Virus record (IMG/VR): IMGVR_UViG_3300005805_000013
Location: 1-32,763 of that record
Strand: one strand, 5' to 3'
From: a virus
Taxonomy: Duplodnaviria; Caudoviricetes
DNA length: 32,763 bases
Position 1 is the stretch's first letter; each line of letters begins with the position of its first letter. The notes beneath the pieces were generated by a model. That model saw only the letters and a list, made by a program, of their open reading frames with translations, ran no database searches and was not told where the DNA came from. A program made the position numbers and the translations under genes. Shown here piece after piece: positions 413 through 30,319 of the stretch.

Positions 413-471
413 ATACACATACACTGAAATAATAGGTGTATAACTTATTAACTATATAGAAAGGCAATATT

Positions 472-1500: not shown

Positions 1501-1508
1501 CATAAATA
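1501..1508 (+). promoter_or_regulatory. Putative T4-like late promoter (CATAAATA) for the terminase genes
   Basis: ATAAATA about 20 nt upstream of the terS start, immediately after a terminator; no -35 element seen. Confidence 0.65.
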
Positions 1509-1527
1509 TCTAACATAGGAAATCTAG

Positions 1528-2016
1528 ATGTTAGACGAACAACAAATACAAGACGACCAAGTCGCACCTCCAGAACAACCCAAACAGTCCGGTGAATATC
1601 CCACTTGGCAATATCCAGAACGCCGTGAGCCACAATGGGGACAAGTAACCAAGGAAGGTTTGGTAGTTGGTAGAGGCCCTAACAAAAAGGTTATCCCACC
1701 AGATGAAGTGTATCATCTAGCCAGCCTAGGCTGTAGTGTAACTGAAATGGCCGATTGGTTTGGCGTAAGTCAATCAACGCTGAAGTATAACTTCGGCGAG
1801 TATATCAAAAAGGGCAAGGAGCATATCAAGAATAGGCTCCGTGATGCCCAAATTAAAACTGCCTTAAGTGGTAATGCGGCTATGCTCATATGGTTGGGTA
1901 AGAATATGCTTGGACAGAGCGATATGCCTGTGAACACTGAAGCCAACGAACCCTTACCGTGGACAGACAATGACATACCCAGAGACGAAGTAGGTGCTGT
2001 CCAGGACACTGACTAA
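1528..2016 (+). CDS. terS: Terminase small subunit
   Basis: HTH-like segment (LGCSVTEMADWFGVSQSTL), motif GNAAMLIWLGKNMLGQSD, directly upstream of and coupled to terL. Confidence 0.85.
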   Translation: MLDEQQIQDDQVAPPEQPKQSGEYPTWQYPERREPQWGQVTKEGLVVGRGPNKKVIPPDEVYHLASLGCSVTEMADWFGVSQSTLKYNFGEYIKKGKEHIKNRLRDAQIKTALSGNAAMLIWLGKNMLGQSDMPVNTEANEPLPWTDNDIPRDEVGAVQDTD

Positions 2017-3254
2017 TGTCCTTGAGCAAGACGCAACAGGCAGTTGCCCAAGATAATCATCGGTTTCGTGTGGTCATAGCGGGAAGGCGTTGGGGGAAGA
2101 CGCACCTTTCCATTCGCGAACTAGCCAAGTTCGCCAGCAAACCCAATCAGAAAGTAATGTATGTTGCCCCAAGTTATCGTATGGCCAAAGGTATCGTTTG
2201 GGACAAGCTCAAGTATAAACTAATCGATCTGCGTTGGGTAAAGAAAGTCAATGAAAGTGATCTTACCATAACACTAATAAACGAAACCAAGATATCAATC
2301 CGTGGTGCTGATAATTTTGACAGCCTGCGGGGACTTGAAAATCATTTCATAGTTATGGATGAGTTTGCTATGATAGATCCCCGTGCTTGGACAGAAGTTC
2401 TCCGTGCCACATTATCAAACACACTTGGACACGCATTGTTTATCAGCACCCCAACCGGTAAGAACAATTGGGCATTTGATATGTTTAACAAGCATATCGA
2501 AGATGATAAGAATTGGAGCAGTCACCAATACACAAGTATCGAAGGTGGGCAAATACCTGCAGAAGAAATAGAACAAGCCCGTAGAGATCTTGATGAGCGT
2601 GTGTTCAGACAAGAGTTCGAAGCCAGCTTTGAGTCATATGATGGTACAGTATGCTGGGCCTGGCGTCGTGAAGAGAACATACGCAACCTAGAGGATCCAG
2701 ACACACGCATACTACACATTGGTATCGACTTCAATGTCAGCCCAATCACCGCCGCCATATTTGTCCGCTATGGTGATGATATGTACCAGATAGATGAAGT
2801 GGTAATGCACAATTCAAACACCTTTGAATTGGTAGAAGAGATACAGAACAGATACCCTACCAGCAAGGTATTCGCTTATCCGGACCCAGCAGGTAATCAG
2901 CGTAAGACATCAGCAGGTGGTAATACAGATATCAAGATACTTTCAAACGCTGGATTCGTAGTCAAAGCACCTAGGGCACATAACTTAGTCAAGGATCGTA
3001 TAAATGCTTTTAACAGTAGATTATGTTCAACTGACGGCCAGCGCCATCTTTTTGTGGCTAGTAATTGTAAGCACACCATAGAGTCAATTGAGAAGTTCAG
3101 CTACAAGCCAGGCACTCAAGTACCGGACAAAGATCAAGGTTGGGATCATATGTTTGATGCCGCTAGTTACGCCATAGACTTCTTGTTCCCAATCACCCGT
3201 GAATATCAACTAGACCCTTATGCACCGCAGGTTTGGCGTCACCAGCTAGCATAA
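2016..3254 (+). CDS. terL: Terminase large subunit
   Basis: Walker A (AGRRWGKT), Walker B (IVMDEFA), coupling motif ISTPTG, RNase H-like nuclease residues (IGIDFN, YPDPAG, DHMFDA). Confidence 0.97.
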   Translation: MSLSKTQQAVAQDNHRFRVVIAGRRWGKTHLSIRELAKFASKPNQKVMYVAPSYRMAKGIVWDKLKYKLIDLRWVKKVNESDLTITLINETKISIRGADNFDSLRGLENHFIVMDEFAMIDPRAWTEVLRATLSNTLGHALFISTPTGKNNWAFDMFNKHIEDDKNWSSHQYTSIEGGQIPAEEIEQARRDLDERVFRQEFEASFESYDGTVCWAWRREENIRNLEDPDTRILHIGIDFNVSPITAAIFVRYGDDMYQIDEVVMHNSNTFELVEEIQNRYPTSKVFAYPDPAGNQRKTSAGGNTDIKILSNAGFVVKAPRAHNLVKDRINAFNSRLCSTDGQRHLFVASNCKHTIESIEKFSYKPGTQVPDKDQGWDHMFDAASYAIDFLFPITREYQLDPYAPQVWRHQLA

Positions 3255-3258
3255 ATGG

Positions 3259-3266
3259 CATAAATA
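3259..3266 (+). promoter_or_regulatory. Putative late promoter (CATAAATA) for the portal gene
   Basis: ATAAATA at 3260-3266 in the 49-nt terL-portal gap. Confidence 0.6.
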
Positions 3267-3303
3267 ATAACTATACTATGGCAGCCAAATTGCAGGAAAC
3301 CTT

Positions 3304-4914
3304 ATGAATAACAATCTCCAAGAACTATACAATCAGGTCACCAGCACCAATATCTTATACACAGATAACCAAAAGCGTTGGTTATTCTATCTAGAAAGCT
3401 ATATGGGTGGTGATGAATATCGTCGTGGTAGCCATCTAAACCGTTACCAATTAGAAAGCGATAGAGAATATGCACAACGACTAGCAGTAACCCCATTAGA
3501 TAATCATTGCCGTAGCGTTATCAATGTATATAATAGTTTCTTGTTCCGTGAAGAGCCCGAGCGTGAGTTTGGTGACTTCAAAGATGATCCCATGCTAGCC
3601 GAGTTTCTAGAAGATGCTGATCTAGAAGGCCGTAGCCTAGACGCTGTGATGAAAGATGTAGCCACTTGGACCGCAGTGTTTGGACATACCTATATCCTGT
3701 TAAGCAAACCCAACATTGGTGCCGCAACCCTAGCAGACGAGATCGCCAATGGTGTCCGTCCTTATGTCAGCGTGCTAACACCTTTGGTAGTTTATGATTG
3801 GCAATACCAAAGAGCACCAAATGGTTATTATGAATTAACCTATTTCAAATATGCAGAAGACGACAATAACAAACACACTACAAAAATTATAGAATACTAT
3901 AAAGATCGTATCGTAACTACAGAATTAAACACAGAAAAGAAAAAAGTCCTACAGCAGATCGAAGAACCCAACCAATTAGGTCAGATACCAATCGTTATCG
4001 CTTACAATCAACGCAGTCCTATCCGCGGTTTGGGCGTTAGTGATATTAGTGATATCGCAGATCAACAGAAAGCTATCTACAATGAGCTCAGCGAGATAGA
4101 AGCAAGTATCAGACTAGACAGCCATCCAACATTAGTAACACCTGAGAATGTCAAGCTAGGCAGTGGTGCTGGTGCTATCTGTTATGTACCAGAAACAATG
4201 GATCCTGGACTTAAACCTTATACCTTACAAAACTCAGGTGCGGATATATCAGCTATCTACGCAAGTATAAATGCCCGTATAGCCAGCATAGACAAGATGG
4301 CTAACACTGGTGCAGTGCGTGCCACGGAAGCTAGAACAATGTCAGGCATAGCTATGCAGACAGAATTCCAATTGCTTAATGCACGCCTTAGTGAAAAAGC
4401 AGACAATCTCGAGATCGCAGAAGAACATATGTGGAAGATTTGGTGTGCTTACCAAGGTTATAGTTGGGACGGTGAGATAGATTATCCAGGTAGCTTCAAC
4501 ATACACGACAGCCAAGGTGAGTTTGCACAATTACAAACAGCGATGTCAGCGGCCACAACACCAGAAGCCAAAGCAGTTATTGATTATCGTGTGCGTGAAT
4601 TACTAGACGACCCAAGATGTGACTACGATCTTGACGAAGAAGGCTATGAATTGGCTGAATATCAGGCTGAAATAGACAAATTAAATGCAATAACTGAACA
4701 AATAGCGGCAAATGAACAGGTGCAGGTAATGGAATCAGTGGCGGATGGTGCTGAAACAGAACAACACGCTACCACAACACCTGAAAACAGACAATCACAC
4801 ATACAAGATATGATAATGGAAGGTTATACAGATGAAGAAATACTACAAATCCATATTGAAATCAATCAAGCGGATATTAGATCGGCTAAAGAAGCACTTC
4901 TAAATCTAGGTTAG
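3304..4914 (+). CDS. Portal protein (SPP1-like) with an acidic C-terminal extension
   Basis: Follows terL; 536 aa; motifs NHCRSVINVYNSFLF, NQLGQIPIV, GVSDISDIADQQKAI, SGIAMQ are typical of SPP1 gp6-like portals. Confidence 0.9.
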   Translation: MNNNLQELYNQVTSTNILYTDNQKRWLFYLESYMGGDEYRRGSHLNRYQLESDREYAQRLAVTPLDNHCRSVINVYNSFLFREEPEREFGDFKDDPMLAEFLEDADLEGRSLDAVMKDVATWTAVFGHTYILLSKPNIGAATLADEIANGVRPYVSVLTPLVVYDWQYQRAPNGYYELTYFKYAEDDNNKHTTKIIEYYKDRIVTTELNTEKKKVLQQIEEPNQLGQIPIVIAYNQRSPIRGLGVSDISDIADQQKAIYNELSEIEASIRLDSHPTLVTPENVKLGSGAGAICYVPETMDPGLKPYTLQNSGADISAIYASINARIASIDKMANTGAVRATEARTMSGIAMQTEFQLLNARLSEKADNLEIAEEHMWKIWCAYQGYSWDGEIDYPGSFNIHDSQGEFAQLQTAMSAATTPEAKAVIDYRVRELLDDPRCDYDLDEEGYELAEYQAEIDKLNAITEQIAANEQVQVMESVADGAETEQHATTTPENRQSHIQDMIMEGYTDEEILQIHIEINQADIRSAKEALLNLG

Positions 4915-4917
4915 CAT

Positions 4918-5172
4918 ATGGCAATTACTCGCGGAGGTGTGGTATTTGCAGGCTATAACAAGCCTAAACGCACTCCTTCGCATCCTACTAAAAGCCACGC
5001 AGTATTGGCCAAGGTTGGTGATAAGGTTAGATTGATACGCTTTGGACAACAAGGTGTCAGAGGCGATCGTAAGAACACAGCTAGGGCTCGTGCTTTCCGT
5101 GCAAGACACGCTAAGAACATAGCCAAAGGTCGTTTAAGTGCGGCATATTGGTCAAACAAGGTAAAATGGTAA
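4918..5172 (+). CDS. Small basic phage protein (84 aa), probably virion-associated
   Basis: YNKPKRTPSHPTKSHAVLAK...IRFGQQG...FRARH...SAAYWS pattern, which I recall from aquatic phage head modules. Confidence 0.75.
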   Translation: MAITRGGVVFAGYNKPKRTPSHPTKSHAVLAKVGDKVRLIRFGQQGVRGDRKNTARARAFRARHAKNIAKGRLSAAYWSNKVKW

Positions 5173-5450
5173 TGAAAAAAGTTAAAACATCTGACAGCAA
5201 GACATTTAATTGGAATCCAAACACACGACAGTTTGCACAAGGTGTCAGCACATTCAATGCTAGAACACGAGCGTTTGAAAGTGCACCAGCTGGTAGTGTG
5301 CAGAGATTTAATCCTTCTGCAAGACAATTCCAATTGGCCAAACCTACAGAAGTAAGACAGTTTAATCCTACAACCAAGCAGTTTGAATTTGGCACAGGAA
5401 CCAGAGTATGGAATCCATACAAGAAGCAATTTGAAACACGCAGGGGCTAG
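5172..5450 (+). CDS. Hypothetical repeat protein (92 aa) with five [FW]N-x-x-x-[RK]-x-F repeats
   Basis: TAATG coupling puts the start at 5172; repeats WNPNTRQF, FNARTRAF, FNPSARQF, FNPTTKQF, WNPYKKQF. Confidence 0.75.
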   Translation: MKKVKTSDSKTFNWNPNTRQFAQGVSTFNARTRAFESAPAGSVQRFNPSARQFQLAKPTEVRQFNPTTKQFEFGTGTRVWNPYKKQFETRRG

Positions 5451-5480
5451 ACAGTGAAACTTAAACCAGGAGGAAAGAAA

Positions 5481-5534
5481 ATGCCAGGAAGAGGAAAAGG
5501 TCGTGGAACAGGCAAGAAACCACCAAAGCGTTAA
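5481..5534 (+). CDS. 17-aa basic micropeptide MPGRGKGRGTGKKPPKR
   Basis: Strong AGGAGG RBS before ATG 5481; TAA at 5532-5534. Confidence 0.6.
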   Translation: MPGRGKGRGTGKKPPKR

Positions 5535-5841
5535 TTGGTTGGAATATTTTACCAGCATCAAAACTCAATGTCCTTGGAGTTTAGCCGCATATCTGAAAGG
5601 TGAGTTAGACATCTGTGATTGGACGGGTGAAGTCAAACCCTTAGGCAAGATGCAGGCAAGGATGTATATCTTAGATGCAGAAGATGATGAAGTCAAGCAG
5701 TTAGCAGAACAATTGGATGAAGGTGCGTGCGAATGGTTATATAGCTTTCCAGGCTACGGTCCGTTCGCTACACCAGTCAAGGTGTTGATACAGCAAGATC
5801 GTGCAACACTAGCAAGATTAAGGAAAAGTATTGGGGATTAA
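5503..5841 (+). CDS. Hypothetical protein (up to 112 aa)
   Basis: ORF filling the gap before the scaffold gene; GTG start uncertain. Confidence 0.7.
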   Translation: MEQARNHQSVNWLEYFTSIKTQCPWSLAAYLKGELDICDWTGEVKPLGKMQARMYILDAEDDEVKQLAEQLDEGACEWLYSFPGYGPFATPVKVLIQQDRATLARLRKSIGD

Positions 5842-5847
5842 AACCTA

Positions 5848-5854
5848 ATAAATA
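5848..5854 (+). promoter_or_regulatory. Putative late promoter (ATAAATA) for scaffold/capsid genes
   Basis: Intergenic ATAAATA about 37 nt upstream of the scaffold ATG. Confidence 0.6.
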
Positions 5855-5890
5855 TAGTATTAAAAACACTCTAAAGGAGGCCAGGTTACA

Positions 5891-6589
5891 ATGACCGAAG
5901 AACAAACATTGGCAGGCACTAACGACGCAACTGACGCTCAAGCCACACAAACAAGTCAGGAAACACAAGCAACTAAAGAAGCAAGAACATATACGCAAGA
6001 AGAATTTGACAGCCATATGGCAGGACTAAAAGCCAGCCTACAGAAGAAACTCTTAAAACCATATGAGGATCTCGGTGATGTCAATGAATTGCGTGAACTA
6101 AAAGCTCAAGCACAGAAGAAAGCTCAAGAAGAGCAATTGAAGCGCGGCGAGTTTGATAAGATTATTGCTGATTTGGCTGCTAAAAAGGATGCTGAAATCC
6201 AAAAAAGAGATCGACTTATTGAAGAATTCAAAGTTGAGCAACCACTATTAAGCGTAGCTGGTGAATACCGTTCTGTAAATCCAGAGCAGGTTAAGAAACT
6301 ATTACGCCCTTATGTAAGACTCAACGGTGATGGTGAAGTGGAAGTTACAGATGATAAAGGAACAGTGCGTTACGGTGATGATGGAAAACCATTAGCCGTA
6401 AAAGATTTAGTGAAAAACTTCCTAGCAGAAAATCCTCACTTTGTGCAGGCAACCCCTGCAACGACGAATTCAAGCCATAGCGTAAAAAGCGAAAGCAGTG
6501 GTAAGATCGATGTTACAAAATTGGATATGAGCAATCCTGAAGATCGTGCAGTCTATAGAGAATATCGCAAGACACACGGTGTAATATAA
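5891..6589 (+). CDS. Capsid scaffolding protein
   Basis: AAGGAGG RBS; RTYTQEEFD motif, coiled coil, charged; directly upstream of the capsid gene. Confidence 0.85.
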   Translation: MTEEQTLAGTNDATDAQATQTSQETQATKEARTYTQEEFDSHMAGLKASLQKKLLKPYEDLGDVNELRELKAQAQKKAQEEQLKRGEFDKIIADLAAKKDAEIQKRDRLIEEFKVEQPLLSVAGEYRSVNPEQVKKLLRPYVRLNGDGEVEVTDDKGTVRYGDDGKPLAVKDLVKNFLAENPHFVQATPATTNSSHSVKSESSGKIDVTKLDMSNPEDRAVYREYRKTHGVI

Positions 6590-6615
6590 TTTAATTTAAT
6601 CTTAAGGAGATTGCA

Positions 6616-7479
6616 ATGGCAACAACATTATCATCATTGAGTGCGTTATTACCCTCAATCGTTCAAGAAGCACTTTTCGTTGCTTCAGAAAGAAGTATTA
6701 TGCGTGGTTTGGTAAAGAACTATACATTACCACCAGGCGCAGGTAAAACCGTAAATGTACCAATCTATGGTTTACAAACAGCAGTATCATTAACTGAAGG
6801 TGTAGCATTAACAGACCACACTGTTTCTGGTTATGCGAATGTAACACCATCATCAAAAACATTGACCGTAGCAGAAGTTGGTATCGCAACACAAATCACA
6901 GACATCTCTCGTATCAGCTCAGCAACAAATGTTGTAGCAGATATTGGTCGTCTATTTGGTGAAGCGATTGCTCGTAAGATCGACACTGACCTAACAGCAC
7001 TATTCAGTGGCTTTTCAACAGGCCTAGGTAATGCTAGCGTAACATTAAGCCCAGGCTTAGTATTTGAAGCAGTTGCTAGACTACGCCAAAACGGTGTTCC
7101 TTCAACAGACATCGCTTGTGTGGTAGCTCCAGCAGTAGCATATGACCTAAAAGCAGCACTAACAAACACATATGCAAATCCAAATGCAGGCGTTATCCAA
7201 AATGAAGCTATGCAAATGGGCTATGTAGGTATGTTAGCAGGTGTTCCAATCTATGAAACAGCAAACCTAGCAGACACAGGCACAACAGGTGACTATGTTG
7301 GTGGTGTGTTCCATAGAGAAGCACTTGGCTTGGCTATGATGCAAGACATCAAGATCGAGTCACAAAGAAATGCTCTATTGCGCGGCGACGATTTAATCGC
7401 CACAGCGATGTATGGTGTAGGTGAACTATATGATGCATACGGTGTGAAAATCACTAGTGACAGTTCAATTCTAAACTAA
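6616..7479 (+). CDS. Major capsid protein (HK97 fold)
   Basis: 287 aa; GKTVNVP, AVSLTEG, GEAIARKIDTDL, VGMLAGVPIYET, TAMYGVGEL motifs; follows the scaffold gene. Confidence 0.92.
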   Translation: MATTLSSLSALLPSIVQEALFVASERSIMRGLVKNYTLPPGAGKTVNVPIYGLQTAVSLTEGVALTDHTVSGYANVTPSSKTLTVAEVGIATQITDISRISSATNVVADIGRLFGEAIARKIDTDLTALFSGFSTGLGNASVTLSPGLVFEAVARLRQNGVPSTDIACVVAPAVAYDLKAALTNTYANPNAGVIQNEAMQMGYVGMLAGVPIYETANLADTGTTGDYVGGVFHREALGLAMMQDIKIESQRNALLRGDDLIATAMYGVGELYDAYGVKITSDSSILN

Positions 7480-7505
7480 TTGAATTATTAACAGAGGACA
7501 CGGAA

Positions 7506-8000
7506 ATGGCTTTTATACTATCAGGAACAACAGTAATTAGTTTCGCAGAATATCAAGATGTGGTTGATATAGATCAACGACTTTTTGATGAGAATGAAGG
7601 CCTAACGGATGATATTATAGAAGATATGCTGATCCGCTCTACGGAAAGGATTCTAGCACAATTGAAGAATACAGAGTGGTATAGAACGCTTGCCCAAGCC
7701 TATGGTGCCAGTGCCTTAACTATGCCATCTCTGTCCGGTTCCAAGATCATTAGTAACAAAAATGATTTTACAGATCTATGTGTATATCACGCACTATTTG
7801 AATACATCTTACCTAGGATAGCAGATTTTGGTAATGAGAATAACGCAGAGAAAGTCAAGATAGATTTCTATCGTCAGAAATACTCTGCGTTGTTTGATGA
7901 ACTTATCCGTTATGCCAATTGGTATGATTATGATGGTAGTGGCACGATCGACACAGAAGAAGTAAAAGATACTTTTGTTAACTATCAGAGGATAAGATAA
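7506..8000 (+). CDS. Head-tail connector/adaptor
   Basis: Position after the capsid gene; helical, with C-terminal YDYDGSGTID. Confidence 0.7.
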   Translation: MAFILSGTTVISFAEYQDVVDIDQRLFDENEGLTDDIIEDMLIRSTERILAQLKNTEWYRTLAQAYGASALTMPSLSGSKIISNKNDFTDLCVYHALFEYILPRIADFGNENNAEKVKIDFYRQKYSALFDELIRYANWYDYDGSGTIDTEEVKDTFVNYQRIR

Positions 8001-8395
8001 TGCGTGATGAATTAATCACATATTTGAAAACCTTGGACTTTGGAACTGTTTCAGTCAGCGACGAATTACCTTATACCAAAGATGCGGCACCATTGTATCT
8101 AAGTAACTATAAGAAAATCTATGTGGACCGTCCTTTGTTAAGTCAAGAGCCAGTGTTGAATACCTTTGGCGGCAGTGGTTATGTAAATCAAACTACAACA
8201 ATCACAGCCTACTTGGTACTAGACGCTAAAACACTCGTATCAAATTACAACAGTATCATATCTCAGATGCAGGCCGCTAAGAATGCAATTTCTAATGATG
8301 GAAGAATCAGTAGAACTTGTAGTATTAGTCAATCATATGAGGTTGATGCATTAGTGACTGAATTTACATTCAGCTTTATAGAACTTTTATCATAA
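8000..8395 (+). CDS. Tail terminator/completion-like protein
   Basis: 131 aa, directly before the tail tube gene; translationally coupled. Confidence 0.6.
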   Translation: MRDELITYLKTLDFGTVSVSDELPYTKDAAPLYLSNYKKIYVDRPLLSQEPVLNTFGGSGYVNQTTTITAYLVLDAKTLVSNYNSIISQMQAAKNAISNDGRISRTCSISQSYEVDALVTEFTFSFIELLS

Positions 8396-8407
8396 GGAGC
8401 ATTACAA

Positions 8408-8893
8408 ATGGCTTACATTTATCCAGCTCCAGGTAACACAGACGCAGAAGTAATCTTGAAAGTCGGCATATCAGGTAGTAACCTTGCTAATACTAGCACA
8501 ACACTATCTGTTCCTAGCTTACAAGACATTACAGTTAATTCTGCAAACGATGTATTTACTTGGACACAATTAGACACAGCTTCTAAGAAGCAAGTGGCTA
8601 CAACAGCAACAAACAGTCTAGCAATGAATTTAGTATTAGATCAGGAATCATTCTTTGGTAACGCGGCAGCTACAACTGACAGCGCAAAATTCCAAGGTTT
8701 ATTCGGTCTAAGTTCAAGCAAAGACAAAATTAGCTTTAGCCTTTACTTAGGTGACACAGACACTGGCGGCGCAGGCAAAACCATTACAGGCGCAGGCTAT
8801 GTAACTGGTCTAGCACCAACAGTAAGTGCAGACAGCCCAGTATGGGTATCACCAATCACTATCACAGTGGATGGTGACTACACAGTAGCTTAA
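8408..8893 (+). CDS. Major tail tube protein
   Basis: 161 aa, S/T/G-rich beta protein ending GAGYVTGLAPTVSADSPVWVSPITITVDG; synteny. Confidence 0.8.
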   Translation: MAYIYPAPGNTDAEVILKVGISGSNLANTSTTLSVPSLQDITVNSANDVFTWTQLDTASKKQVATTATNSLAMNLVLDQESFFGNAAATTDSAKFQGLFGLSSSKDKISFSLYLGDTDTGGAGKTITGAGYVTGLAPTVSADSPVWVSPITITVDGDYTVA

Positions 8894-8909
8894 GGCAGTC
8901 AACAAGATA

Positions 8910-8933
8910 AACAGGGCGTTAATGCGCCCTGTT
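8910..8933 (+). terminator. Hairpin (possible terminator or mRNA 3' end) after the tail tube gene
   Basis: AACAGGGCG-TTAATG-CGCCCTGTT inverted repeat; weak U-tract. Confidence 0.55.
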
Positions 8934-8939
8934 GTCTTA

Positions 8940-8947
8940 TATAAATA
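8940..8947 (+). promoter_or_regulatory. Putative late promoter TATAAATA for the tail assembly operon
   Basis: Exact T4 late consensus immediately after the hairpin and 20 nt before ATG 8968. Confidence 0.65.
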
Positions 8948-8967
8948 CAACAAGCGAGGATATACAG

Positions 8968-9141
8968 ATGGAAGTTCTAGAGACCAAAGACCGCAAAGAA
9001 TTATTGCAAAGTGTATTGGCAGAAGTCGCAAAGACAGCCAATGAAGTAAATTGTGCGGCCAAAGATGTGGCCAAAGCACGCAACAGATTAACATTCTTAA
9101 TAGCAGTGGCAAATGAATTGATCAACAGAGAGGAGATATAA
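8968..9141 (+). CDS. Small coiled-coil hypothetical protein (57 aa)
   Basis: GAGGA RBS supports ATG 8968 over the TTG at 8932. Confidence 0.7.
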   Translation: MEVLETKDRKELLQSVLAEVAKTANEVNCAAKDVAKARNRLTFLIAVANELINREEI

Positions 9142-9143
9142 AG

Positions 9144-9482
9144 ATGAAATTAAGCCAATTAGCCGCAAAACCCCAATTAATAGAAATAAAATTAGATGAT
9201 GAAGAAACTCTAGCCAAATATGGTGAAGCAGTTACATTCCATATCTGGGATCGCCAGAGTATGGATACCTTTGTTAAATTAGCAACCATAGATTACAAAG
9301 AGTTTGGTAGTGTTGCAGAATTGATGAAAGCATTGGTATTAGACGAAGAGGGTAAGCCAATCGTTAATGACGAACTAGTATTGCCAACAGATTTACTAAT
9401 GAAAGCAATTACAAAAGTGATTGAAACCTTGGGAAAGTCAGTAACCCCATCTACAGGGACGACGATAGAGAATACCAAGTAA
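9144..9482 (+). CDS. Tail assembly chaperone (gpG-like)
   Basis: Between tube and tape measure genes; contains the G GGA AAG slippery site. Confidence 0.85.
   Translation: MKLSQLAAKPQLIEIKLDDEETLAKYGEAVTFHIWDRQSMDTFVKLATIDYKEFGSVAELMKALVLDEEGKPIVNDELVLPTDLLMKAITKVIETLGKSVTPSTGTTIENTK
9431..9437 (+). other. Programmed -1 ribosomal frameshift site GGGAAAG
   Basis: Same heptamer and phase as the lambda G-T site (G GGA AAG, Gly-Lys); the -1 frame is open from 9431 into ORF 9485..9712. Confidence 0.9.
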
Positions 9483-9712
9483 TATTGATGTTAGATGCAG
9501 TAGCACAACGCTATGGTGTGCTACCAAGTGACTTGTTATTAAGAGGTAATAGTATTGATATCACTATAGCTAATCTAGCACAAGAATATATTAATAGAAA
9601 AACGGCAGAAGCAAACGGGCAACAGATAGCAAAACGAGCACCTAATCTATCACAAGAAGAGATGCAGAATATGATTAAAAAGGTTAAGGATAGAGAAAAT
9701 GTCAGCAAATAA
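9437..9712 (+). CDS. Tail assembly chaperone GT extension (fusion about 189 aa)
   Basis: The -1 frame reads VSNPIYRDDDREYQVILMLDAVAQRYGVLPS...; no clear RBS of its own. Confidence 0.82.
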   Translation, partial: VSNPIYRDDDREYQVILMLDAVAQRYGVLPSDLLLRGNSIDITIANLAQEYINRKTAEANGQQIAKRAPNLSQEEMQNMIKKVKDRENVSK

Positions 9713-9974
9713 CAGAATGACACCATCACTGATGCGTATTGTTAGTAAGTTATCAACTGTACCTAAAAAAGCCTTTGATGTGTTTATTGCCAATACCCCA
9801 GTAGCCAGTGGTAACGCTCGACGGAAAACAAAATTGGTTGGCAATGCAATCCGTGCTGATTATGCTTATGCTACTAGATTAGACGAAGGCTATAGTAGAA
9901 AGCGTCCTGAAGGTATGACTAAACCTACAGAACGATTTCTTAGTGATGAAGTTAAAAAAATAATGAGGAAATAG
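9699..9974 (+). CDS. HK97 gp10-like neck/tail completion protein
   Basis: TPVASGNARR...YAYATRLDEG motif resembles the gp10 family (P-V-x-T/S-G-x-L/A-R...YA...E.G). Confidence 0.65.
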   Translation: MSANNRMTPSLMRIVSKLSTVPKKAFDVFIANTPVASGNARRKTKLVGNAIRADYAYATRLDEGYSRKRPEGMTKPTERFLSDEVKKIMRK

Positions 9975-9976
9975 CG

Positions 9977-12565: not shown

Positions 12566-12567
12566 CG

Positions 12568-17557: not shown

Positions 17558-17568
17558 GAGGTCGAGAG

Positions 17569-22587: not shown

Positions 22588-22600
22588 TTATATTTTCAGT

Positions 22601-22645
22601 CATAAATACTACTACAGCAAGCGCCTCAGTGTTTGCTGTATTTTT
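22601..22645 (+). promoter_or_regulatory. Putative late promoter CATAAATA followed by a 12-bp hairpin and U-tract
   Basis: ATAAATA 22602-22608; TACAGCAAGCGC-CTCA-GTGTTTGCTGTA-TTTTT at 22613-22645. Confidence 0.55.
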
Positions 22646-22662
22646 CCTTCAGGAGAGCGACT

Positions 22663-23160
22663 ATGGCAGGCGTCTTAAACTTTGATCAGTACCTTGGCGG
22701 TGCAGATCAACTAAAAATCAAACAAGTATTTCCAAACGATCAAACAACCTTACAATATAGCTATGCACAAAACATAACTGGTTGGGCATTTGATCTACAA
22801 CAACAAACCCTAGTGGTTGATAAGGTAGCATTTAACCGCAACACAGGGCAACCTAATTTTTCAGACAGCACTGTCATTGGATTTTTCCCTGCAACCAATA
22901 TCAGTTCAGGTAATGTTACTGTGGCTAATACAGCTATTGGCACAGTAAATGTAACTCTTCCAAAAAATCTATACACTGGTCCCATTATTCCAGATGCACG
23001 CAAGAATGTACCAATCACGGTAGTCAGCCTAAGTTGGACAGATGATGCTAGTCCACCAGAAGTCCGCACACATCGCTGGGCACTTGTGCAGAGTTGGGAG
23101 CCAGGTGTTACTCCAGGTGATCCTATCGCTAGCACTAATCCGTTATATACGGCACTTTAG
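22663..23160 (+). CDS. Fibre adaptor/baseplate upper-type structural protein (165 aa)
   Basis: AGGAG RBS supports ATG 22663; beta-rich; directly upstream of the fibre gene. Confidence 0.65.
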   Translation: MAGVLNFDQYLGGADQLKIKQVFPNDQTTLQYSYAQNITGWAFDLQQQTLVVDKVAFNRNTGQPNFSDSTVIGFFPATNISSGNVTVANTAIGTVNVTLPKNLYTGPIIPDARKNVPITVVSLSWTDDASPPEVRTHRWALVQSWEPGVTPGDPIASTNPLYTAL

Positions 23161-23169
23161 GAGACTACA

Positions 23170-26145
23170 ATGGGATATACAGTAACCATAACTGAACTAA
23201 GCAGTAATGTCAGTGTCATTTCGGAATCAAATCCAAATATCAATATCAGCACAACAGAATATCCTGTTGAGATCTATTACGACAGTATAACCACACAGGG
23301 CAATATCGGTCCGCAAGGACCAAAAGGTGACACTGGTGCTACAGGCGCAACTGGAGCCACAGGACCCCAAGGCATACAAGGAGTAAAAGGCGATACAGGT
23401 GCTACGGGAGCAACTGGTGTTAGTATTAGTAATGCCGCTGTCAGTGGTGATAATCTAGTCATTACATTTTCAAACAGTGCTGTAATCACAGCAGGTAATG
23501 TTCGCGGACCCCAGGGCCCACAAGGCATTCAAGGGAATGTAGGAGCCACTGGTGCAACTGGTGCTACTGGGGCTACCGGCGCACAGGGGCCACAAGGCAT
23601 ACAAGGAAATGTTGGTGCTACTGGTGCTACTGGAGCTACTGGTGCCCAAGGAGAACAGGGCATACAAGGGATACAAGGCATACAGGGCAATACTGGCCCC
23701 CAGGGCCCACAAGGCATAAAAGGCGATACTGGAGAACAAGGTGCCGCACTAACTATCATTGGCACTGTGGCTAATGTAGCAAGTTTGCCGGGCTCAGGTA
23801 ATATCGGTAATGCTTATATCATCGCAACCACAGCTTCAGAACCTGAAGCTGGTAATCTATATGTATGGAGTGCGACAACTAACACTTGGGCAGATGTTGG
23901 ACAGATAGTAGGACCCCAGGGCCCACAAGGCATACAGGGGATACAGGGCATACAAGGTAATACTGGCCCCCAAGGTGAACAAGGCATTCAAGGCATACAA
24001 GGAATCCAAGGAAATGTGGGTCCACAAGGCGAAACTGGACCGCAAGGACCGCAAGGCATTCAAGGAATTCAAGGAAATGTTGGTGCTACAGGAGCGACTG
24101 GTGCAACTGGTGCAACTGGACCGCAAGGCATACAAGGAAATACTGGTGTTAGTATTAGTAATGCTACAGTAACAGGTGATGACTTAGTAATAACTTTTAG
24201 CAATGCCGCAGTCATTACCGCAGGTAATGTTCGCGGACCCCAGGGCCCACAAGGCATTCAAGGGAATGTAGGAGCCACTGGTGCAACTGGAGCTACTGGT
24301 GCCACGGGCGCGACAGGTGCTACCGGCGCACAAGGACCTGTGTTTGGTCAGGTGTTAAATTACGATACATCTACAGGAACAACCAGTTGGACAGCAGGAA
24401 TATTCCGTTATAGTGGTAATACTCCTTCTACAATTGGCTTTGTCCGCATAGCATTAAACATTGGCAATCCAAGTAGTGTAGCTTGGGTAGGAACTTTAGC
24501 CGCCAGTGATACTATCTATGTAACCACATCGACAGGCAGTATTCAAAACACATTTAAGGTAGTATCTGTCACAGAACAAGGTGATTATTATGATGTAGCG
24601 GTTACATCAGGTAGCGGTAGTGAGCCTACAAATGCCACAAATTATTATCTATGGTATGCAAGAGCTGGTGCTACAGGCGCAACTGGCGCAACTGGAGATA
24701 CTGGTGCTACGGGAGCGACTGGGGCACAAGGCATTCAGGGCCTGCAAGGAAATGTTGGCGTTAGTGTAAGTAATGTCCAAGTAATCAGCAGTAATCTACA
24801 GGTAACTTTCTCAAACGCTACAAGTATTTGGGCAGGCACTGTAGCAGGTAGTGGTCTAACTGATATCATACAAGACACTACACCACAACTTGGTGGTAAC
24901 TTAGATCTAAACGATAAAATTATCACAGGTAATGTATTTGGCAAAGGTATGCGTGTAGAGTTTCCAAGCAACCTAACAACTGCATATTTTGAATTTAATT
25001 CTACTGCTCCTGGATTAGGCTACTACGCGGGTGACAATGAGCAGACCTATGTGCGATTTGTTGCTAATGTTAATAGTGGTGCTAACAATAGTTATGATAT
25101 ATTACGCATACAAAATCTTAACAATGGTGCCAATGCTGAAGCTAGATTAACAATGTTGAATAATGATGGCACCAAACAACTTGTTCTCTATCAATCAAAT
25201 GACAACTATGTCAATAGTGCTATTCCAATAGTCGCAGGTAATGATGGTGGATTAGCCAAACTGGGTGGTGATTTACATCTACAGGCTATCAAATCTAACT
25301 TTAGCACACAAGGCAATATCGTGATGTCAGGTCTGTTTACCAGTAACAAGGCATTTAACTTTAACCTTGAGACTGGAGATTTAACCGCAGGATTTGGTAA
25401 CATCCATTTAGCTTCAGGCAAAGGTGTTTACATTAATGGTGTAGAACTAACTGGTGGTGGAAGTGGAGGTAATTACAGCAATACTAATGTTGCCGCGTAT
25501 CTAACAAGCCAAAGTATAACATCATACGGTAACACTAATGTTGCCGCATACCTAACTGCCAATCCACAACCAGGCACTTATTCAAATACCAATGTAGCCA
25601 GTTACTTGGTGGATAATCCACAACCAGGAACTTATTCAAATACCAATGTAGCCAGTTACTTGGTGGATAATCCACAACCAGGCACTTATAGTAATACGCA
25701 AGTCCAAAGTTATCTAACCACCCAAGGCATCACAGCCTATGGTAACACACAGGTAGCTAGTTATCTCGCAGGCAATGTTACTGTTGGTAATATAGCAGGT
25801 AAGACAAGTGGATTTACTATTGGTTATCTAGAAATGCCACAGGTTGCGGCGGCTAATGTTACACTTGCACTTAGTGACAGTGGTAAGCATTTCTATGATA
25901 CCAGCACAGCACCAATCACGGTTACTATACCAAATAATGCCAATGTGGCATTCCCAATTGGCACAGTGATAACCTTAGTAAATCACAGCACAGGCAATCT
26001 AATAGTTGGTAGAGAAAATGCCGCTAACCTATACTTAGGTGGTAACGCAACTTCAGCAGGTAGGACTATTACCACATTTGGTGTGGCTACTTTACTTAAA
26101 GTAAATACCAATGATTGGTTTATTAATGGTACAGGAGTAGTATAA
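23170..26145 (+). CDS. Tail fibre with collagen-like Gly-X-Y repeats
   Basis: Long GPQ/GAT/GIQ runs, DTTPQLGGNLD motif, YSNTNVASYL repeats, C-terminal T.TIP.NA.VAFPIGT...WFI.G domain. Confidence 0.9.
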   Translation: MGYTVTITELSSNVSVISESNPNINISTTEYPVEIYYDSITTQGNIGPQGPKGDTGATGATGATGPQGIQGVKGDTGATGATGVSISNAAVSGDNLVITFSNSAVITAGNVRGPQGPQGIQGNVGATGATGATGATGAQGPQGIQGNVGATGATGATGAQGEQGIQGIQGIQGNTGPQGPQGIKGDTGEQGAALTIIGTVANVASLPGSGNIGNAYIIATTASEPEAGNLYVWSATTNTWADVGQIVGPQGPQGIQGIQGIQGNTGPQGEQGIQGIQGIQGNVGPQGETGPQGPQGIQGIQGNVGATGATGATGATGPQGIQGNTGVSISNATVTGDDLVITFSNAAVITAGNVRGPQGPQGIQGNVGATGATGATGATGATGATGAQGPVFGQVLNYDTSTGTTSWTAGIFRYSGNTPSTIGFVRIALNIGNPSSVAWVGTLAASDTIYVTTSTGSIQNTFKVVSVTEQGDYYDVAVTSGSGSEPTNATNYYLWYARAGATGATGATGDTGATGATGAQGIQGLQGNVGVSVSNVQVISSNLQVTFSNATSIWAGTVAGSGLTDIIQDTTPQLGGNLDLNDKIITGNVFGKGMRVEFPSNLTTAYFEFNSTAPGLGYYAGDNEQTYVRFVANVNSGANNSYDILRIQNLNNGANAEARLTMLNNDGTKQLVLYQSNDNYVNSAIPIVAGNDGGLAKLGGDLHLQAIKSNFSTQGNIVMSGLFTSNKAFNFNLETGDLTAGFGNIHLASGKGVYINGVELTGGGSGGNYSNTNVAAYLTSQSITSYGNTNVAAYLTANPQPGTYSNTNVASYLVDNPQPGTYSNTNVASYLVDNPQPGTYSNTQVQSYLTTQGITAYGNTQVASYLAGNVTVGNIAGKTSGFTIGYLEMPQVAAANVTLALSDSGKHFYDTSTAPITVTIPNNANVAFPIGTVITLVNHSTGNLIVGRENAANLYLGGNATSAGRTITTFGVATLLKVNTNDWFINGTGVV
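23491..24290 (+). repeat. 71-bp exact direct repeat within the fibre gene (23491-23561 and 24220-24290)
   Basis: GCAGGTAATGTTCGCGGACCCCAGGGCCCACAAGGCATTCAAGGGAATGTAGGAGCCACTGGTGCAACTGG occurs twice. Confidence 0.9.
25561..25689 (+). repeat. 54-bp tandem repeat (about 2.4 copies; NPQPGTYSNTNVASYLVD)
   Basis: Units start at 25561, 25615 and 25669; the first two differ by one base. Confidence 0.9.
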
Positions 26146-27017
26146 TGTCAGGCATTAGCGGAATGATGTTTGCAGGTTTCGCTCCGCCTGCCGCGGCAGT
26201 TGCCAGCGATACCAACACAGTGGTATTATTCCACTTTGATGGTGCCAATGCTTCAACTACTATAACCAATAGTGTCTCAGGCGGTCGCTCCTTTACTAAA
26301 GGTAGTTATGCAGGAACTTTTATTACCACAGCTGATTTCAAATTTGGTAATGCAAGTTATCGTAGCACACAAACAAGTTCATCAGGTGCTAGCAATGCAG
26401 GTATCTATCCCACAACCAAGACACTAGTTGATGGTAGTTGGGTTCCGCGAGATTATTGGTGGGCTAATGACACTACCTGCGAAAGTTGGGTTTACCTGCG
26501 TAGCAACACAGCAGGTGGACAATTTATTATTTGGCACGGACTAGGAACTCCCCGATTCAATGCAGGCTTTTGGAACACTGCCAGTGGTGCTAGTATGAGC
26601 TTTGATGTTGAGATGAGCTTAGGTGGTAGCAGTGCTACCTATTCTGCTGGTAGCAATGGTGTTGGTTATTATTATCTCAAATGGACTATTGGTAACAGCA
26701 TATTAAACACTTGGGCACATATCGCTTTGGTAAGAACAGGCAGTGCCTTAAAATTATTCATTAATGGAACAGATCAGGGCAATGCTTCAGTGACTTCAGG
26801 TACTGGTAGAACATCAGCTAATATATTTGCTACAACCAGTCCTTATGTTGGTACAGGTGCAGGTGTTACTGCTAACTTGGCCATTGGTGACATCGGCGGA
26901 CCTTATACCGATTATGGATTCCGCAACAGTAATATGGATGAATTCCGCTTTAGTAACGGTATAGCTCGTTACACATCAACATTCTCTGTACCAACAGCGG
27001 CATTCCCAGATGTATAG
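26145..27017 (+). CDS. LamG/concanavalin A-like domain protein (probable receptor-binding)
   Basis: NTVVLFHFDG, KFGNAS, TCESWVY, TWAHIALVRTG..LKLFING, MDEFRFSNGIARY, FSVPTAAF. Confidence 0.85.
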   Translation: MSGISGMMFAGFAPPAAAVASDTNTVVLFHFDGANASTTITNSVSGGRSFTKGSYAGTFITTADFKFGNASYRSTQTSSSGASNAGIYPTTKTLVDGSWVPRDYWWANDTTCESWVYLRSNTAGGQFIIWHGLGTPRFNAGFWNTASGASMSFDVEMSLGGSSATYSAGSNGVGYYYLKWTIGNSILNTWAHIALVRTGSALKLFINGTDQGNASVTSGTGRTSANIFATTSPYVGTGAGVTANLAIGDIGGPYTDYGFRNSNMDEFRFSNGIARYTSTFSVPTAAFPDV

Positions 27018-27025
27018 GATAATGT

Positions 27026-27247
27026 ATGTCAACAATTAAAATTAATCTAAATGGTGAAACGGTTGCATTCAATTGTTTCATAGCAGGCGGTGATGTCTGT
27101 CCCGAGATAAGATTAAATCACGATGCTTGGCCAGAATATGTCATAGTAGAAAATGTTTCTAATTATACAGCCTGGCAAGAAGTTATGTTAGATGTATTTG
27201 CACAATGTGGTGCAGATCTGACTAAAATAACTTTTGAAAATATCTAA
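27026..27247 (+). CDS. Hypothetical protein (73 aa)
   Basis: AGGA RBS; last gene of the structural operon. Confidence 0.7.
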   Translation: MSTIKINLNGETVAFNCFIAGGDVCPEIRLNHDAWPEYVIVENVSNYTAWQEVMLDVFAQCGADLTKITFENI

Positions 27248-27642
27248 CCCTTATAGTTAGGATCGTTGTACCAAGCAATCCTTACCTTGTCCTTGCCTTT
27301 TTTGCTATTTTTGTGTAGTAGTTCGCCTGTCTTGGGATCATAGATACGCATACAGGTATGACATTCACAATGCCAAGTTGGAGGTTGATTCCTTACTTGG
27401 ATTTTCTTGTAACTACAGATTTGATGCACTACCTTACCACACCACGCACAAGGAGTGACACAGGCACTATCTTTGTATTTGAGAATACGCGGACCTAATT
27501 GTGGGTTAGGTGTATAGGCTTGGGTAAATTCTTCTTTGCCGTTACTAGGTTTGATTCGTTCAATAGTGTTATCTTGGCTAAGGCTTGGATACACCCATTC
27601 TGCTACTTCACTTAATTTTTGTTCTAATTTTTTTGAATCCAC
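27244..27642 (-). CDS. Putative zinc-finger protein (132 aa)
   Basis: CAWC...CECHTC cysteine pattern; GTG start with AGGA upstream; the only sizeable minus-strand ORF not overlapping a plus-strand gene. Confidence 0.75.
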   Translation of the reverse strand: MDSKKLEQKLSEVAEWVYPSLSQDNTIERIKPSNGKEEFTQAYTPNPQLGPRILKYKDSACVTPCAWCGKVVHQICSYKKIQVRNQPPTWHCECHTCMRIYDPKTGELLHKNSKKGKDKVRIAWYNDPNYKG

Positions 27643-27790: not shown

Positions 27791-27840
27791 AAATGTATTT
27801 ACTAATTTTAATTTTGGAGGTAAAAAAGAATAAATAATTA

Positions 27841-27968
27841 TGTAGCACAAAGTTCGCCATACTGAGTGTTACAGATTGGCAGGATTTCCTATTTTCTTGT
27901 CATTTCTTATTATTCCCTAAATGAGAGTAGTAACCCAAAAGCCCCATTTCTCCCAAGTGGGGCTTTTT
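27841..27968 (+). ncRNA. Candidate small RNA (about 128 nt) between a late motif and a terminator
   Basis: ATAAATA at 27830-27836, 5' stem TGTAGCAC/GTGTTACA, pyrimidine-rich middle, 3' terminator; no plus-strand ORF. Confidence 0.55.
27937..27968. terminator. Intrinsic, potentially bidirectional terminator
   Basis: AAAAGCCCCATTT-CTCCC-AAGTGGGGCTTTTT. Confidence 0.8.
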
Positions 27969-27992
27969 CTTTGTTGAAAATATTTGTCGTGG

Positions 27993-28011
27993 TATAAATA
28001 AAGTATAAATA
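27993..28011 (+). promoter_or_regulatory. Tandem TATAAATA late-promoter motifs
   Basis: TATAAATA at 27993-28000 and 28004-28011, upstream of ATG 28036. Confidence 0.65.
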
Positions 28012-28035
28012 AAATTAAACAAAGGGAGTCCGAAA

Positions 28036-28437
28036 ATGGCAAAGAAAATATGGAATGATGGCTTAAAAGGCATCAAGACAGCAAGTAATCCAAAAGGTGG
28101 TGGTCGCGTCAAAGGTCGTGACTACAGCTATCTAAATTTGTATCCAGGAGCACAAGCAGAACACAGATTGAGTTACTGTCGTATGCGAGCACAGGCCAAA
28201 TATCGCAATGAAGGTTGGGACATAACTTGGGAACAGTATCAAGAAATCTGGGAAGGCAAGTGGCACCTAAAAGGTCGTGGTAGTGATGACTTATGCTTGA
28301 CTAGGATTGATTGGGCAGGCCCTTGGACTATGGCTAATGTTAATCTAGTATTCCGATTAGACCATCTACGCAGACAAAGCAAGGAAAGACCCAGTAAAAA
28401 AGGTAGGAAGTTGGGTCCAAGGAAACCTAAAGTATGA
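28036..28437 (+). CDS. Degenerate HNH-like (beta-beta-alpha-Me) nuclease or DNA-binding protein
   Basis: AKYRNEGWDITWEQYQEIW...KGRG..DLCLTRIDWAGPWTMANV resembles the phage 'DRID..GY..NV' HNH-like families; the usual catalytic residues look altered. Confidence 0.55.
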   Translation: MAKKIWNDGLKGIKTASNPKGGGRVKGRDYSYLNLYPGAQAEHRLSYCRMRAQAKYRNEGWDITWEQYQEIWEGKWHLKGRGSDDLCLTRIDWAGPWTMANVNLVFRLDHLRRQSKERPSKKGRKLGPRKPKV

Positions 28438-28721
28438 AAATTGAATTTAAGGTATTCTTAAATGAACAAGACTTCCGTAACATTAGGACGCAGTTTGGCT
28501 TCAATGAAGAAATACTTTGGACACACCAAGAAGCAGTTAAATGGTTAGATAATCAAGGATGTACCAGCATATATACATATGATTATAGTATAGCCAAAGA
28601 TGAACAAATCATAATGAAGACTTATGATGTTGATGACGAAACCGTAACTATGTTTAACCTTAAATTTCCAGAAGTATATAAACCAGTAAGAAATTATGAG
28701 GTAGTGACACTAGTAGTATAA
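28434..28721 (+). CDS. Hypothetical protein (95 aa)
   Basis: ATGA overlap with the upstream gene. Confidence 0.75.
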   Translation: MKIEFKVFLNEQDFRNIRTQFGFNEEILWTHQEAVKWLDNQGCTSIYTYDYSIAKDEQIIMKTYDVDDETVTMFNLKFPEVYKPVRNYEVVTLVV

Positions 28722-28729
28722 ATAAATAT

Positions 28730-29175
28730 AACAAACAAGGCTAAGGTTGGCAACCAATAAATGCTAGTGAATCCGTTCTGATGTGAGACGGTAGCTAATT
28801 CCGATTACTTGTTATTGGGCTTTTAAGCACTAACCCTTACTCAAAGGGCGCCTTAAATCAATCCCCGTGGGACTAATGATTTGCTTAATCGTAATGGTAC
28901 AGACATAAAAATGCTTATGTGTAATATTGACACCTGAAAGTTACACTTAAAAATCGCTGTTGGTTGGGTATGGAGCAGAGCCCAAAGCATTGTCAAATAA
29001 TACGAAATCCAACTGTCTAAGTCGGTGAGAGGACTAAGTGAATGGTTGCTAGACACTCAAATGTGGGTGTCTCGCGGCTCAAGGTTCTAGTGAATGCAGT
29101 AATAAAAACTCCAAGTCAAAGTTCAAGCGAAATAGAATATTTCGCGAAGAACAGATGTCGTAAGACATCTTCGCA
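28730..29175 (+). ncRNA. Candidate large structured ncRNA and/or replication origin (about 450 nt)
   Basis: Largest non-coding gap; preceded by TATAAATA (28717-28724); many stems, ending in GCGAAATA-GAA-TATTTCGC and AGATGTC-GTAA-GACATCT. Confidence 0.55.
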
Positions 29176-29176
29176 G

Positions 29177-29221
29177 TTGACATTAGTCAATAACTCAGCT
29201 ATAATATATGTGTGATAAATA
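29177..29221 (+). promoter_or_regulatory. Perfect sigma70 promoter with a palindrome over the -35, plus a downstream ATAAATA
   Basis: TTGACA(29177-82)-17 bp-TATAAT(29200-05); TTGAC-ATTA-GTCAA palindrome; ATAAATA at 29215-29221. Confidence 0.88.
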
Positions 29222-30290: not shown

Positions 30291-30319
30291 TTGACTTTTG
30301 GTAAAAATCAGCGTATAAT
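30291..30319 (+). promoter_or_regulatory. Sigma70-type early promoter with an A-tract UP element
   Basis: TTGACT(30291-96)-17 bp-TATAAT(30314-19); phased A-tracts upstream. Confidence 0.9.

Follow-up and report, generated by a model that had tools for sequence, protein, structure and literature searches.

How does a small tailed phage from a lake come to carry, in front of its virion operons, promoter boxes resembling those of far larger phages, when no gene for a factor able to read them is recognisable in its own genome? The question is raised by the viral record IMGVR_UViG_3300005805_000013 (Duplodnaviria; Caudoviricetes), whose entire stretch of 32,763 nt is referred to here as the window, and by the heptamer ATAAATA recurring between its genes. 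The answer that we prefer, with a probability of roughly 0.7, is that the window is a parasite with an autonomous virion, which would be turned on by the late sigma factor (gp55) of a co-infecting Rak2-like jumbo phage, and which would likely borrow lysis and possibly an origin of replication. Helper-dependent multiplication appears likely because the window carries the jumbo-phage late promoter and a non-coding element, element B, and has no detectable sigma, replication or lysis gene.

Eleven copies of ATAAATA are present in the window, all on the plus strand and none on the minus strand; ten lie entirely between genes, and the one at 28718 shares bases with a stop codon. All ten sites listed in an earlier interpretation made from the letters alone (the sequence-only reading) were recovered, and an eleventh, at 28722, was added; the claim that no plus-strand copies lie deep within coding sequences can be extended to both strands, no in-gene copy being found on either. 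A check of positional enrichment, set beforehand, gave ten intergenic copies versus 0.84 expected and no more than 5 in any of 5000 shuffles, a placement that AT-rich background does not produce. Inside the 39 genes of the window the sense copies (0 versus 3.4 expected, P = 0.01) and the antisense copies (0 versus 5.3, P = 0.002) were compared with synonymous-codon shuffles. The total count is not raised (11 versus 14.4 expected on both strands), and since other A/T-rich heptamers are equally depleted inside the genes, the weight rests on the intergenic excess and the strand bias. The form TATAAATA is found at only four of the 11 sites. A separate block of small variable genes is driven by near-consensus sigma-70 promoters (35/32719, 384, 29177, 30291, and 31017), in line with the proposal that early genes use host-type promoters; the presence of such promoters also points to a bacterial host. 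The label "late promoter" suits the boxes before the virion operons, but not all of them, as others precede two non-coding elements and small non-structural genes.

The genome is closed, as had been claimed: a terminal repeat of 79 bp yields a unit of 32,684 bp, in agreement with its IMG/VR class (direct terminal repeats, 100% complete). Scans of PHROGs (39 open reading frames, ORFs) and Pfam (41 ORFs) matched the terminase subunits, an SPP1-like portal, the scaffold, a phrog_267 capsid, the tape measure, the distal tail, tail and fibre proteins, and a GNAT acetyltransferase. By these matches the window encodes a whole siphovirus-type particle, several neck and tube genes being placed by position alone. 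The same scans gave no match in the window for a sigma factor, clamp, polymerase, primase, helicase, integrase, or lysin, and neither a DnaD-type initiator nor a lysin was found in it by tblastn. Both halves of the sequence-only reading, a complete virion and no recognisable sigma, clamp, polymerase, helicase, primase, integrase, or endolysin, are thereby borne out. The features are as follows.

35..1346, plus strand: sigma-70-type early region on the other side of the circle join, with ORFs of 92, 42, and 248 aa
1502..1508, plus strand: ATAAATA box before the small terminase gene, directly 3' of a terminator-like hairpin
1528..7479, plus strand: head and packaging genes terS, terL, portal, scaffold, and major capsid (phrog_309, phrog_2, phrog_145, phrog_206, phrog_267), with ATAAATA at 3260 and 5848
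7506..27247, plus strand: neck, tail, and fibre genes (PHROGs/Pfam), with ATAAATA at 8941 and 22602
8408-8893, plus strand: putative tail tube, assigned from its position
9977-12565, plus strand: tape measure
12568-13191, plus strand: distal tail
13191-13769, plus strand: tail protein
13769-17557, plus strand: hub-like protein
Within 7506..27247, plus strand: 1672-aa, collagen-repeat, and LamG fibres
27244..27642, minus strand: C4 zinc-finger protein, found in 15 of 22 clustered motif-bearing genomes, inverted here, with no fold match
27830..27972, plus strand: ATAAATA box and element A, a candidate small RNA of ~130 nt with several hairpins and a terminator at its end
27994..28721, plus strand: two ATAAATA boxes (27994, 28005), a conserved 133-aa protein (phrog_16521, unknown function), and a 95-aa ORF
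28717..29216, plus strand: tandem ATAAATA boxes (28718, 28722) and element B1, gene-free and structured, with jumbo-phage homologues
29177..29876, plus strand: sigma-70 promoter (29177) and ATAAATA (29215), followed by a 141-aa protein with no recognised fold and a 68-aa coiled-coil ORF
30291..32571, plus strand: sigma-70-type early region with the GNAT acetyltransferase (30353-31033), a 189-aa ORF, and small ORFs

With its free first base and 5 nt to the gene start, the ATAAATA box of the window is closer to that of the Rak2-like jumbo phages than to that of T4. In four jumbo contigs the in-gene copies number 13 versus 41.5 expected in the sense and 6 versus 53.6 in the antisense direction. 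Gene starts lying 11 nt or less from a box are separated from it by exactly 5 nt in 11 of the 17 small-phage cases and in 12 of 12 jumbo-phage cases; the base before the heptamer is free in both groups, and the jumbo contigs have an A at +6. At this spacing the hexamer at -12 to -7 is ATAAAT, without the T and A needed by sigma-70. A reading of the motif as an archaeal or eukaryotic TATA box was ruled out by the sigma-70 promoters, the Shine-Dalgarno sites, and the 5-nt spacing. The gp55 profile matched all three jumbo contigs searched (phrog_12791, E 5e-78), in each case a gp55 of the insert type, most similar among cultured phages to those of PA5oct and the CBB/GAP32/121Q group. The motif was described in phage CBB at 35 sites, again with a free base in front of it, and no gp33/gp45 homologues were found in that phage (PMC5259590). 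Small phages and jumbo contigs also have genes in common, namely GIY-YIG, a 94-aa protein, and fibre modules. By tetranucleotide composition the likeness of the window to jumbo phages (0.34-0.51) and to the sister phages described below (0.32-0.41) shows no separation. Where a T4-like or large phage had been suggested as the helper, the large phage is retained, with a Rak2-like jumbo phage fitting better than T4 proper.

Relatives were collected by capsid and tail-tube searches, which gave 588 and 405 IMG/VR stretches, 80 of each being kept; the longest contigs were compared as whole genomes together with the close relative G024 and three GenBank records, leaving out G022, G025, and G026. Sorted by eye according to motif polarity, with G023 intermediate, 23 small aquatic genomes have the ATAAATA layout, the window and DSL-LC06 included, and four (G010, G011, HTVC111P, and HTVC026P) do not. 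Pooled in-gene counts are 10 versus 53 expected (sense) and 3 versus 79 (antisense) in the motif-bearing genomes, and 30 versus 26 and 35 versus 24 in the four others, which form one clade within an unrooted terminase tree. Each of these four sister genomes encodes a lysin as well as a DnaD or DUF1376 protein. Among the 22 motif-bearing IMG/VR records, 15 of them at least 90% complete, the lysozyme, M15 peptidase, and amidase profiles found nothing, as did the lysin families among 104 non-structural representatives at E ≤ 0.001; the GH19 lysin profile matched nowhere, controls included, and so carries no information either way. The gp55 profile matched none of 24 small records, and in one, G001, a 64-aa LuxR-type helix-turn-helix protein scores on sigma-70 region 4. 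That the layout and the missing gp55 and lysin matches hold across the relatives searched points to dependence on a helper, as does the presence of lysins and initiators in the sister clade that lacks the layout.

A lytic phage able to live alone could present a similar picture if a small unrecognised protein of its own redirected the host RNA polymerase to ATAAATA, replication being driven by the host, lysis carried out by a novel lysin, and element B and the shared genes acquired in chance co-infections. Such an autonomous phage gains some plausibility from the strong sigma-70 early promoters and many family-less ORFs of the window, and cultured relatives without DNA polymerase exist, of the HTVC111P type (10.1101/2019.12.14.876532). 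The activator might be sought in the C4 zinc finger of 15 of 22 motif-bearing genomes, which bears a superficial likeness to P2 Ogr, or in the 141-aa protein, for which a sigma-70 promoter and about 129 distant relatives were found. However, there is no non-structural protein that occurs in every motif-bearing genome; the zinc finger is missing from seven of them and is usually last in the tail operon, and the 141-aa family occurs in only three. No upstream activator box was seen around 116 ATAAATA sites, and motif and spacing equal those of the jumbo phages. As own readers both proteins were rejected when the search for sigma or activator folds, proposed earlier, was run on them: the model of the zinc finger (predicted local distance difference test, pLDDT, 71) had no Foldseek match at E ≤ 0.001, and that of the 141-aa protein (pLDDT 88) matched uncharacterised phage proteins and generic helical bundles only (best Z 5.1). 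We regard an autonomous phage of this kind as unlikely.

Helper dependence is pointed to furthermore by a non-coding element of ~500 bp common to the window and to gp55-encoding jumbo phages. Region 28722-29245 of the window contains no gene, and its hairpin recurs in G018 and G019. A scan of IMG/VR with this B1 hairpin gave 17 matches, in ten large (jumbo) contigs, several of them near-identical, and in seven contigs of the small type. The large contigs are fragments, for which CheckV completeness implies roughly 350-430 kb; B1 stands in them beside gp46 and/or a resolvase-like or GIY-YIG gene, and in jumbo phages the B element is fixed behind gp55-gp47-gp46. In metagenomes 56 matches were sorted by an automatic rule into 15 jumbo, 14 small, 6 mixed, and 21 unclassified, the mixed loci being small phages that share genes with jumbo contigs. 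The hairpin is fully paired in all 14 sequences examined, chosen by a pattern that fixes the two outer pairs, with compensatory changes at two of four pairs. Rfam RF01718 (Polynucleobacter-1 RNA), a motif of ~140 nt, covers the 5' part of the ~500-nt element in B1 homologues with 78.1 and 38.7 bits, L222 and G033 passing the gathering score; the window's own copy has no Rfam match.

The nearest classified relative of the window's B1 is the copy of a jumbo contig, L395 (66% over 346 columns), ahead of any classified small copy, and an unclassified copy, L426, is nearer (72%). In a quick tree of 46 B1 copies, with labels given partly by eye and short and duplicate loci dropped, small and jumbo copies are interleaved, with six changes, four of them forced by strong branches. 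In two other studies, too, single contigs run through B1 into small-phage flanks, which rules out an assembly chimera. In L426 (1-1100) a small-phage module with ATAAATA, element A, and B1 is joined near the contig end to bacterial rimO/HU-like genes, named from their translations; the junction is a candidate for either a chimera or an integration junction.

The close relative G024, with flanks 86-96% identical to those of the window, has another element, B2, where the window has B1. The B2 motif was found at 120 loci, with about 640 estimated, and among 80 loci with flanks 62 were jumbo, 11 likely jumbo, 4 small, and 3 other. It has a highly conserved core of several hundred bases (L255-L334; G015, G021, G024), and 19 of its 42 predicted pairs show compensatory changes; no Rfam match was obtained for the copy of G024, and B2 is a candidate for a new large non-coding RNA of aquatic jumbo phages. 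It is also worth mentioning that the terminase of G024 is 94% identical to that of the window and its capsid protein is of a distant type, so that capsid modules are swapped within the group.

About half of the motif-bearing relatives carry replication-type genes of their own. Rep-like genes occur in 11 of them, in or near the slot behind the tail genes; the assignment is backed by family matches in G004, G009, and G020, with an AAA gene nearby in G003 and a helicase in G008. An ATAAATA box lies at most 900 nt upstream of nine of the 11, two of the nine also having a sigma-70 promoter. In G001, G005, and G006 an unannotated Rep-like family of 400-570 aa stands behind ATAAATA, with no Pfam or PHROG match and a stretch that, to our eye, is reminiscent of a family-A polymerase palm. 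B1 or B2 occurs in six of the 23 small genomes, all six lacking a recognised Rep gene; the genomes with Rep-like genes have neither element. A third gene-free element is common to the Rep-less G016 (7183-8300) and DSL-LC06 (572-1328), with a match of 49 nt (E 3e-5).

Because B is exchanged with Rep-like genes, has a fixed place in jumbo genomes, and has an RNase HI neighbour in one cultured phage, it may be a captured RNA-primed origin, for which we put the odds at about even. In PA5oct, GAP32, and Phosso a gene-poor gap lies beside the resolvase at the position of B, RNase HI being next in Phosso; the four non-coding RNAs listed for PA5oct, in the part of its description available, lie elsewhere than in this gap (PMC7318152). 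The gap of Phosso (L377, 229758-231159) is a 1-kb gene-free stretch from the Holliday junction resolvase to RNase HI with a promoter-like site in front, and can be proposed as a candidate origin of a cultured jumbo phage. A turn of the GC skew near B in G029 was discarded as a sign of an origin, as it coincides with a switch of gene strand.

Promoters of both kinds in one place suggest a looser link as well, in which read-through from host promoters would suffice for a slow cycle, and a jumbo co-infection would add no more than a boost through the ATAAATA boxes and element B. Sigma-70 and ATAAATA double promoters are present at 29177/29215 and in G002, G015, G020, and G024, and several relatives have their own primase or helicase. 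Such an optional relationship seems to us improbable, as a terminator-like hairpin (about 1470-1500) separates the early genes from the terS promoter, no sigma-70 consensus was found before the virion operons in a strict scan, and no lysin was matched.

The reader of the boxes could also be supplied by the host, as an alternative sigma factor or a domesticated gp55-like gene; the Polynucleobacter-1 motif was catalogued in a Polynucleobacter chromosome, the accessible text giving no function for it (PMC2864571). Against this, the sister pelagiphages lack such a layout. A scan of GTDB gave seven matches, in contigs of metagenome-assembled genomes from unrelated phyla, and as far as inspected (only L207 was mapped) none is a prophage-like stretch with host genes on both sides. 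L207 itself, from a Smithellaceae genome, has at 83-859 a lone capsid homologue (43%) at the contig end, directly before a ribosomal-protein operon. To our knowledge, there is no bacterial sigma factor with such a single-box consensus, and a host-encoded reader is the explanation to which we give least credence.

We return to the parasite turned on by a jumbo phage, a reading in which the independent lines above point to helper dependence of the window. Its DNA would enter the cell and the host sigma-70 polymerase would express the variable early genes; once helper gp55 is made, the ATAAATA promoters would fire and the virion operons, the small RNA A, and element B would be transcribed. B, as a possible RNA-primed origin, would serve the helper replisome; it would occupy the place that in other members belongs to Rep-type genes of their own, which for the most part likewise follow ATAAATA. 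Both phages would leave the cell through the action of the helper lysin, RNA A may reduce translation of the helper, and the two phages could meet through riding on the helper particle or waiting as an episome.

Several points weigh against this scheme. Shared DNA proves shared cells, and thus co-infection rather than dependence. The lysin contrast amounts to a single evolutionary event, since the four motif-less genomes form one clade, and no order of events is readable, the terminase tree being unrooted. Most early ORFs are without a family, so a diverged or novel sigma factor, activator, or lysin would escape the profiles, and for GH108, SLT, CHAP, and M23 lysins the coverage was limited to Pfam scans of called ORFs. 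Seven of the 11 Rep-like genes have no family match and were named from size and position; in G009 the primase and helicase are preceded by a sigma-70 promoter, and both kinds of promoter are found in G002 and G020. Only six of the 23 small genomes carry B1 or B2. The B profiles were unmatched in the syntenic gap of PA5oct, GAP32, and Phosso, and blastn found no B in cultured phages. B may also move on its own, as its motif occurs in a Polynucleobacter chromosome and the L426 copy adjoins bacterial genes. Persistence between helpers is left unexplained with no integrase match.

A more ambitious version would see here a family of true bacterial virophages, widespread in the sea and in fresh water, whose members are fully self-assembling tailed phages that copy the Rak2-like late promoter, repeatedly capture the origin RNA, borrow the lysin, and aim antisense RNA at helper translation; it is put forward tentatively, as we lean towards doubting it in full. 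Its last component concerns element A, in which several hairpins and a terminator follow the ATAAATA at 27830 over 130 nt (z -6.6); about a dozen relatives have a similar unit 3' of the zinc-finger gene. The loops of element A may be read either as antisense to ATGGC-type starts, with anti-Shine-Dalgarno words nearby, or as resembling tRNA-Gly/Asp anticodon loops. Complementarity to start sites exceeded all 20 shuffles in nine of 12 genomes, the window not among them, in a comparison of one loop with the commonest start; a single 14-nt match between element A of G013/G017 and a jumbo gene in L317 may be chance.

Other observations concern single genes of the window. In the region 27244-27860 (minus strand) the zinc-finger gene has the opposite orientation to that in most relatives; a GTAAATA variant lies upstream of it at 27802, and the region also has a hairpin whose loop word resembles that of element A. 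The 133-aa protein has what we take to be a nuclease-like look. The C-terminal part of the collagen fibre contains direct peptide repeats (25500-25720, from the translation), and a search with the fibre C-terminus found one close small relative only. The 248-aa protein (600-1346) is sigma-70-driven and belongs to a widespread but unnamed family with weak transglutaminase/YunG-like leads; it is possibly an early effector against host or helper. Neither it nor the 189-aa ORF had a named family in the Atlas.

The known phage satellites mostly steal particle parts, and the window would reverse this, having its own particle and stealing gene expression and exit. Hundreds of IMG/VR stretches encode its capsid or tail protein, motif-less relatives counted in, so that a common group of aquatic phages, taken at present for ordinary predators, might be exploiting jumbo phages. 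If true, this would account for the uncultured status of such phages and indicate how to culture them. With element B, parasite and helper could be matched by sequence, and for the replication origin of aquatic Rak2-like jumbo phages there is now a candidate open to testing; the bacterial-virophage reading, if correct, would also identify that origin.

Among known systems, the virophages (Sputnik, Mavirus, Guarani) resemble the window in having their own particle, their helper being a giant virus. Virophages (Lavidaviridae) are defined by a double jelly-roll capsid, an FtsK-type ATPase, and a protist host, whereas the head genes of the window belong to tailed-phage families (terminase, SPP1-like portal, phrog_267 capsid); its host is probably bacterial, it has a Caudoviricetes-type head, a terminase, and a long tail, and the would-be helper is a jumbo phage. 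The traits in common are a whole encoded particle and a helper late promoter carried without a reader gene, the latter within profile sensitivity only. In virophages the late promoter of the helper is found, according to the text available, before structural and replication genes (PMC6723459). Dependence on the helper is demonstrated for them and only inferred here.

The closest phage satellites are MulchRoom and MiniFlayer of Streptomyces, which like the window have capsid and packaging genes and no replicases, MiniFlayer also lacking an integrase, and which have a large virulent helper (PMC10690885). They are without a long-tail module of their own, MulchRoom being believed to rely on the tail of its helper, whereas genes for a tape measure, a distal tail, and fibres are present in the window; the word "promoter" is absent from the main text of that paper, which describes no promoter hijack (PMC10690885). 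The two were not among eight records found in a capsid protein search, their presence in the collection being unchecked. P4, the phage-inducible chromosomal islands (PICIs), their cf-PICI variants, PLE, and I55 are, like the window, helper-triggered phage parasites, and the late promoters of P4 are activated by the helper Ogr. P4, PICIs, PLE, and I55 reside in the chromosome by integration and rely on capsids or tails of the helper, whereas the window is a closed circle with no integrase match, with capsid and tail modules present and no clear prophage among its seven GTDB matches; as the whole particle is self-encoded and no integrase is matched, it would borrow transcription, lysis, and possibly replication. 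I55 is a jumbo-phage island, and for it as for the other three integration and the taking of helper particle parts are described in the accessible texts (PMC12772148; PMC12822802).

The HTVC111P-type pelagiphages, isolated on SAR11 (10.1101/2019.12.14.876532), share with the window a capsid 53-54% identical, the same head-gene order, and the lack of a DNA polymerase, but differ in having a DnaD-domain gene, a lysozyme or M15 peptidase, no ATAAATA polarity, and a GC content of 31% (versus 40%). The Rak2-like jumbo phages (CBB, GAP32, PA5oct), the proposed helpers, have the ATAAATA motif, and B1 or B2 in uncultured members; they encode their own gp55 with an insert and measure about 290-470 kb among the records. 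DSL-LC06 resembles the window in a capsid 40% identical and in polarised ATAAATA (7 versus 1), and among its 44 annotated genes there is no polymerase, primase, helicase, or lysin; it is of metagenomic origin, and the paper describing it, which proposes a family "Nanhuiviridae" and a Pseudomonadota host, mentions neither motif nor helper in the text available (PMC10611076). No report of such a system was found in a literature search whose coverage excluded most subscription papers and bioRxiv supplements. These comparisons strongly suggest that the window represents a new variant of helper-dependent virus, which would be virophage-like in its working and outside the virophage family.

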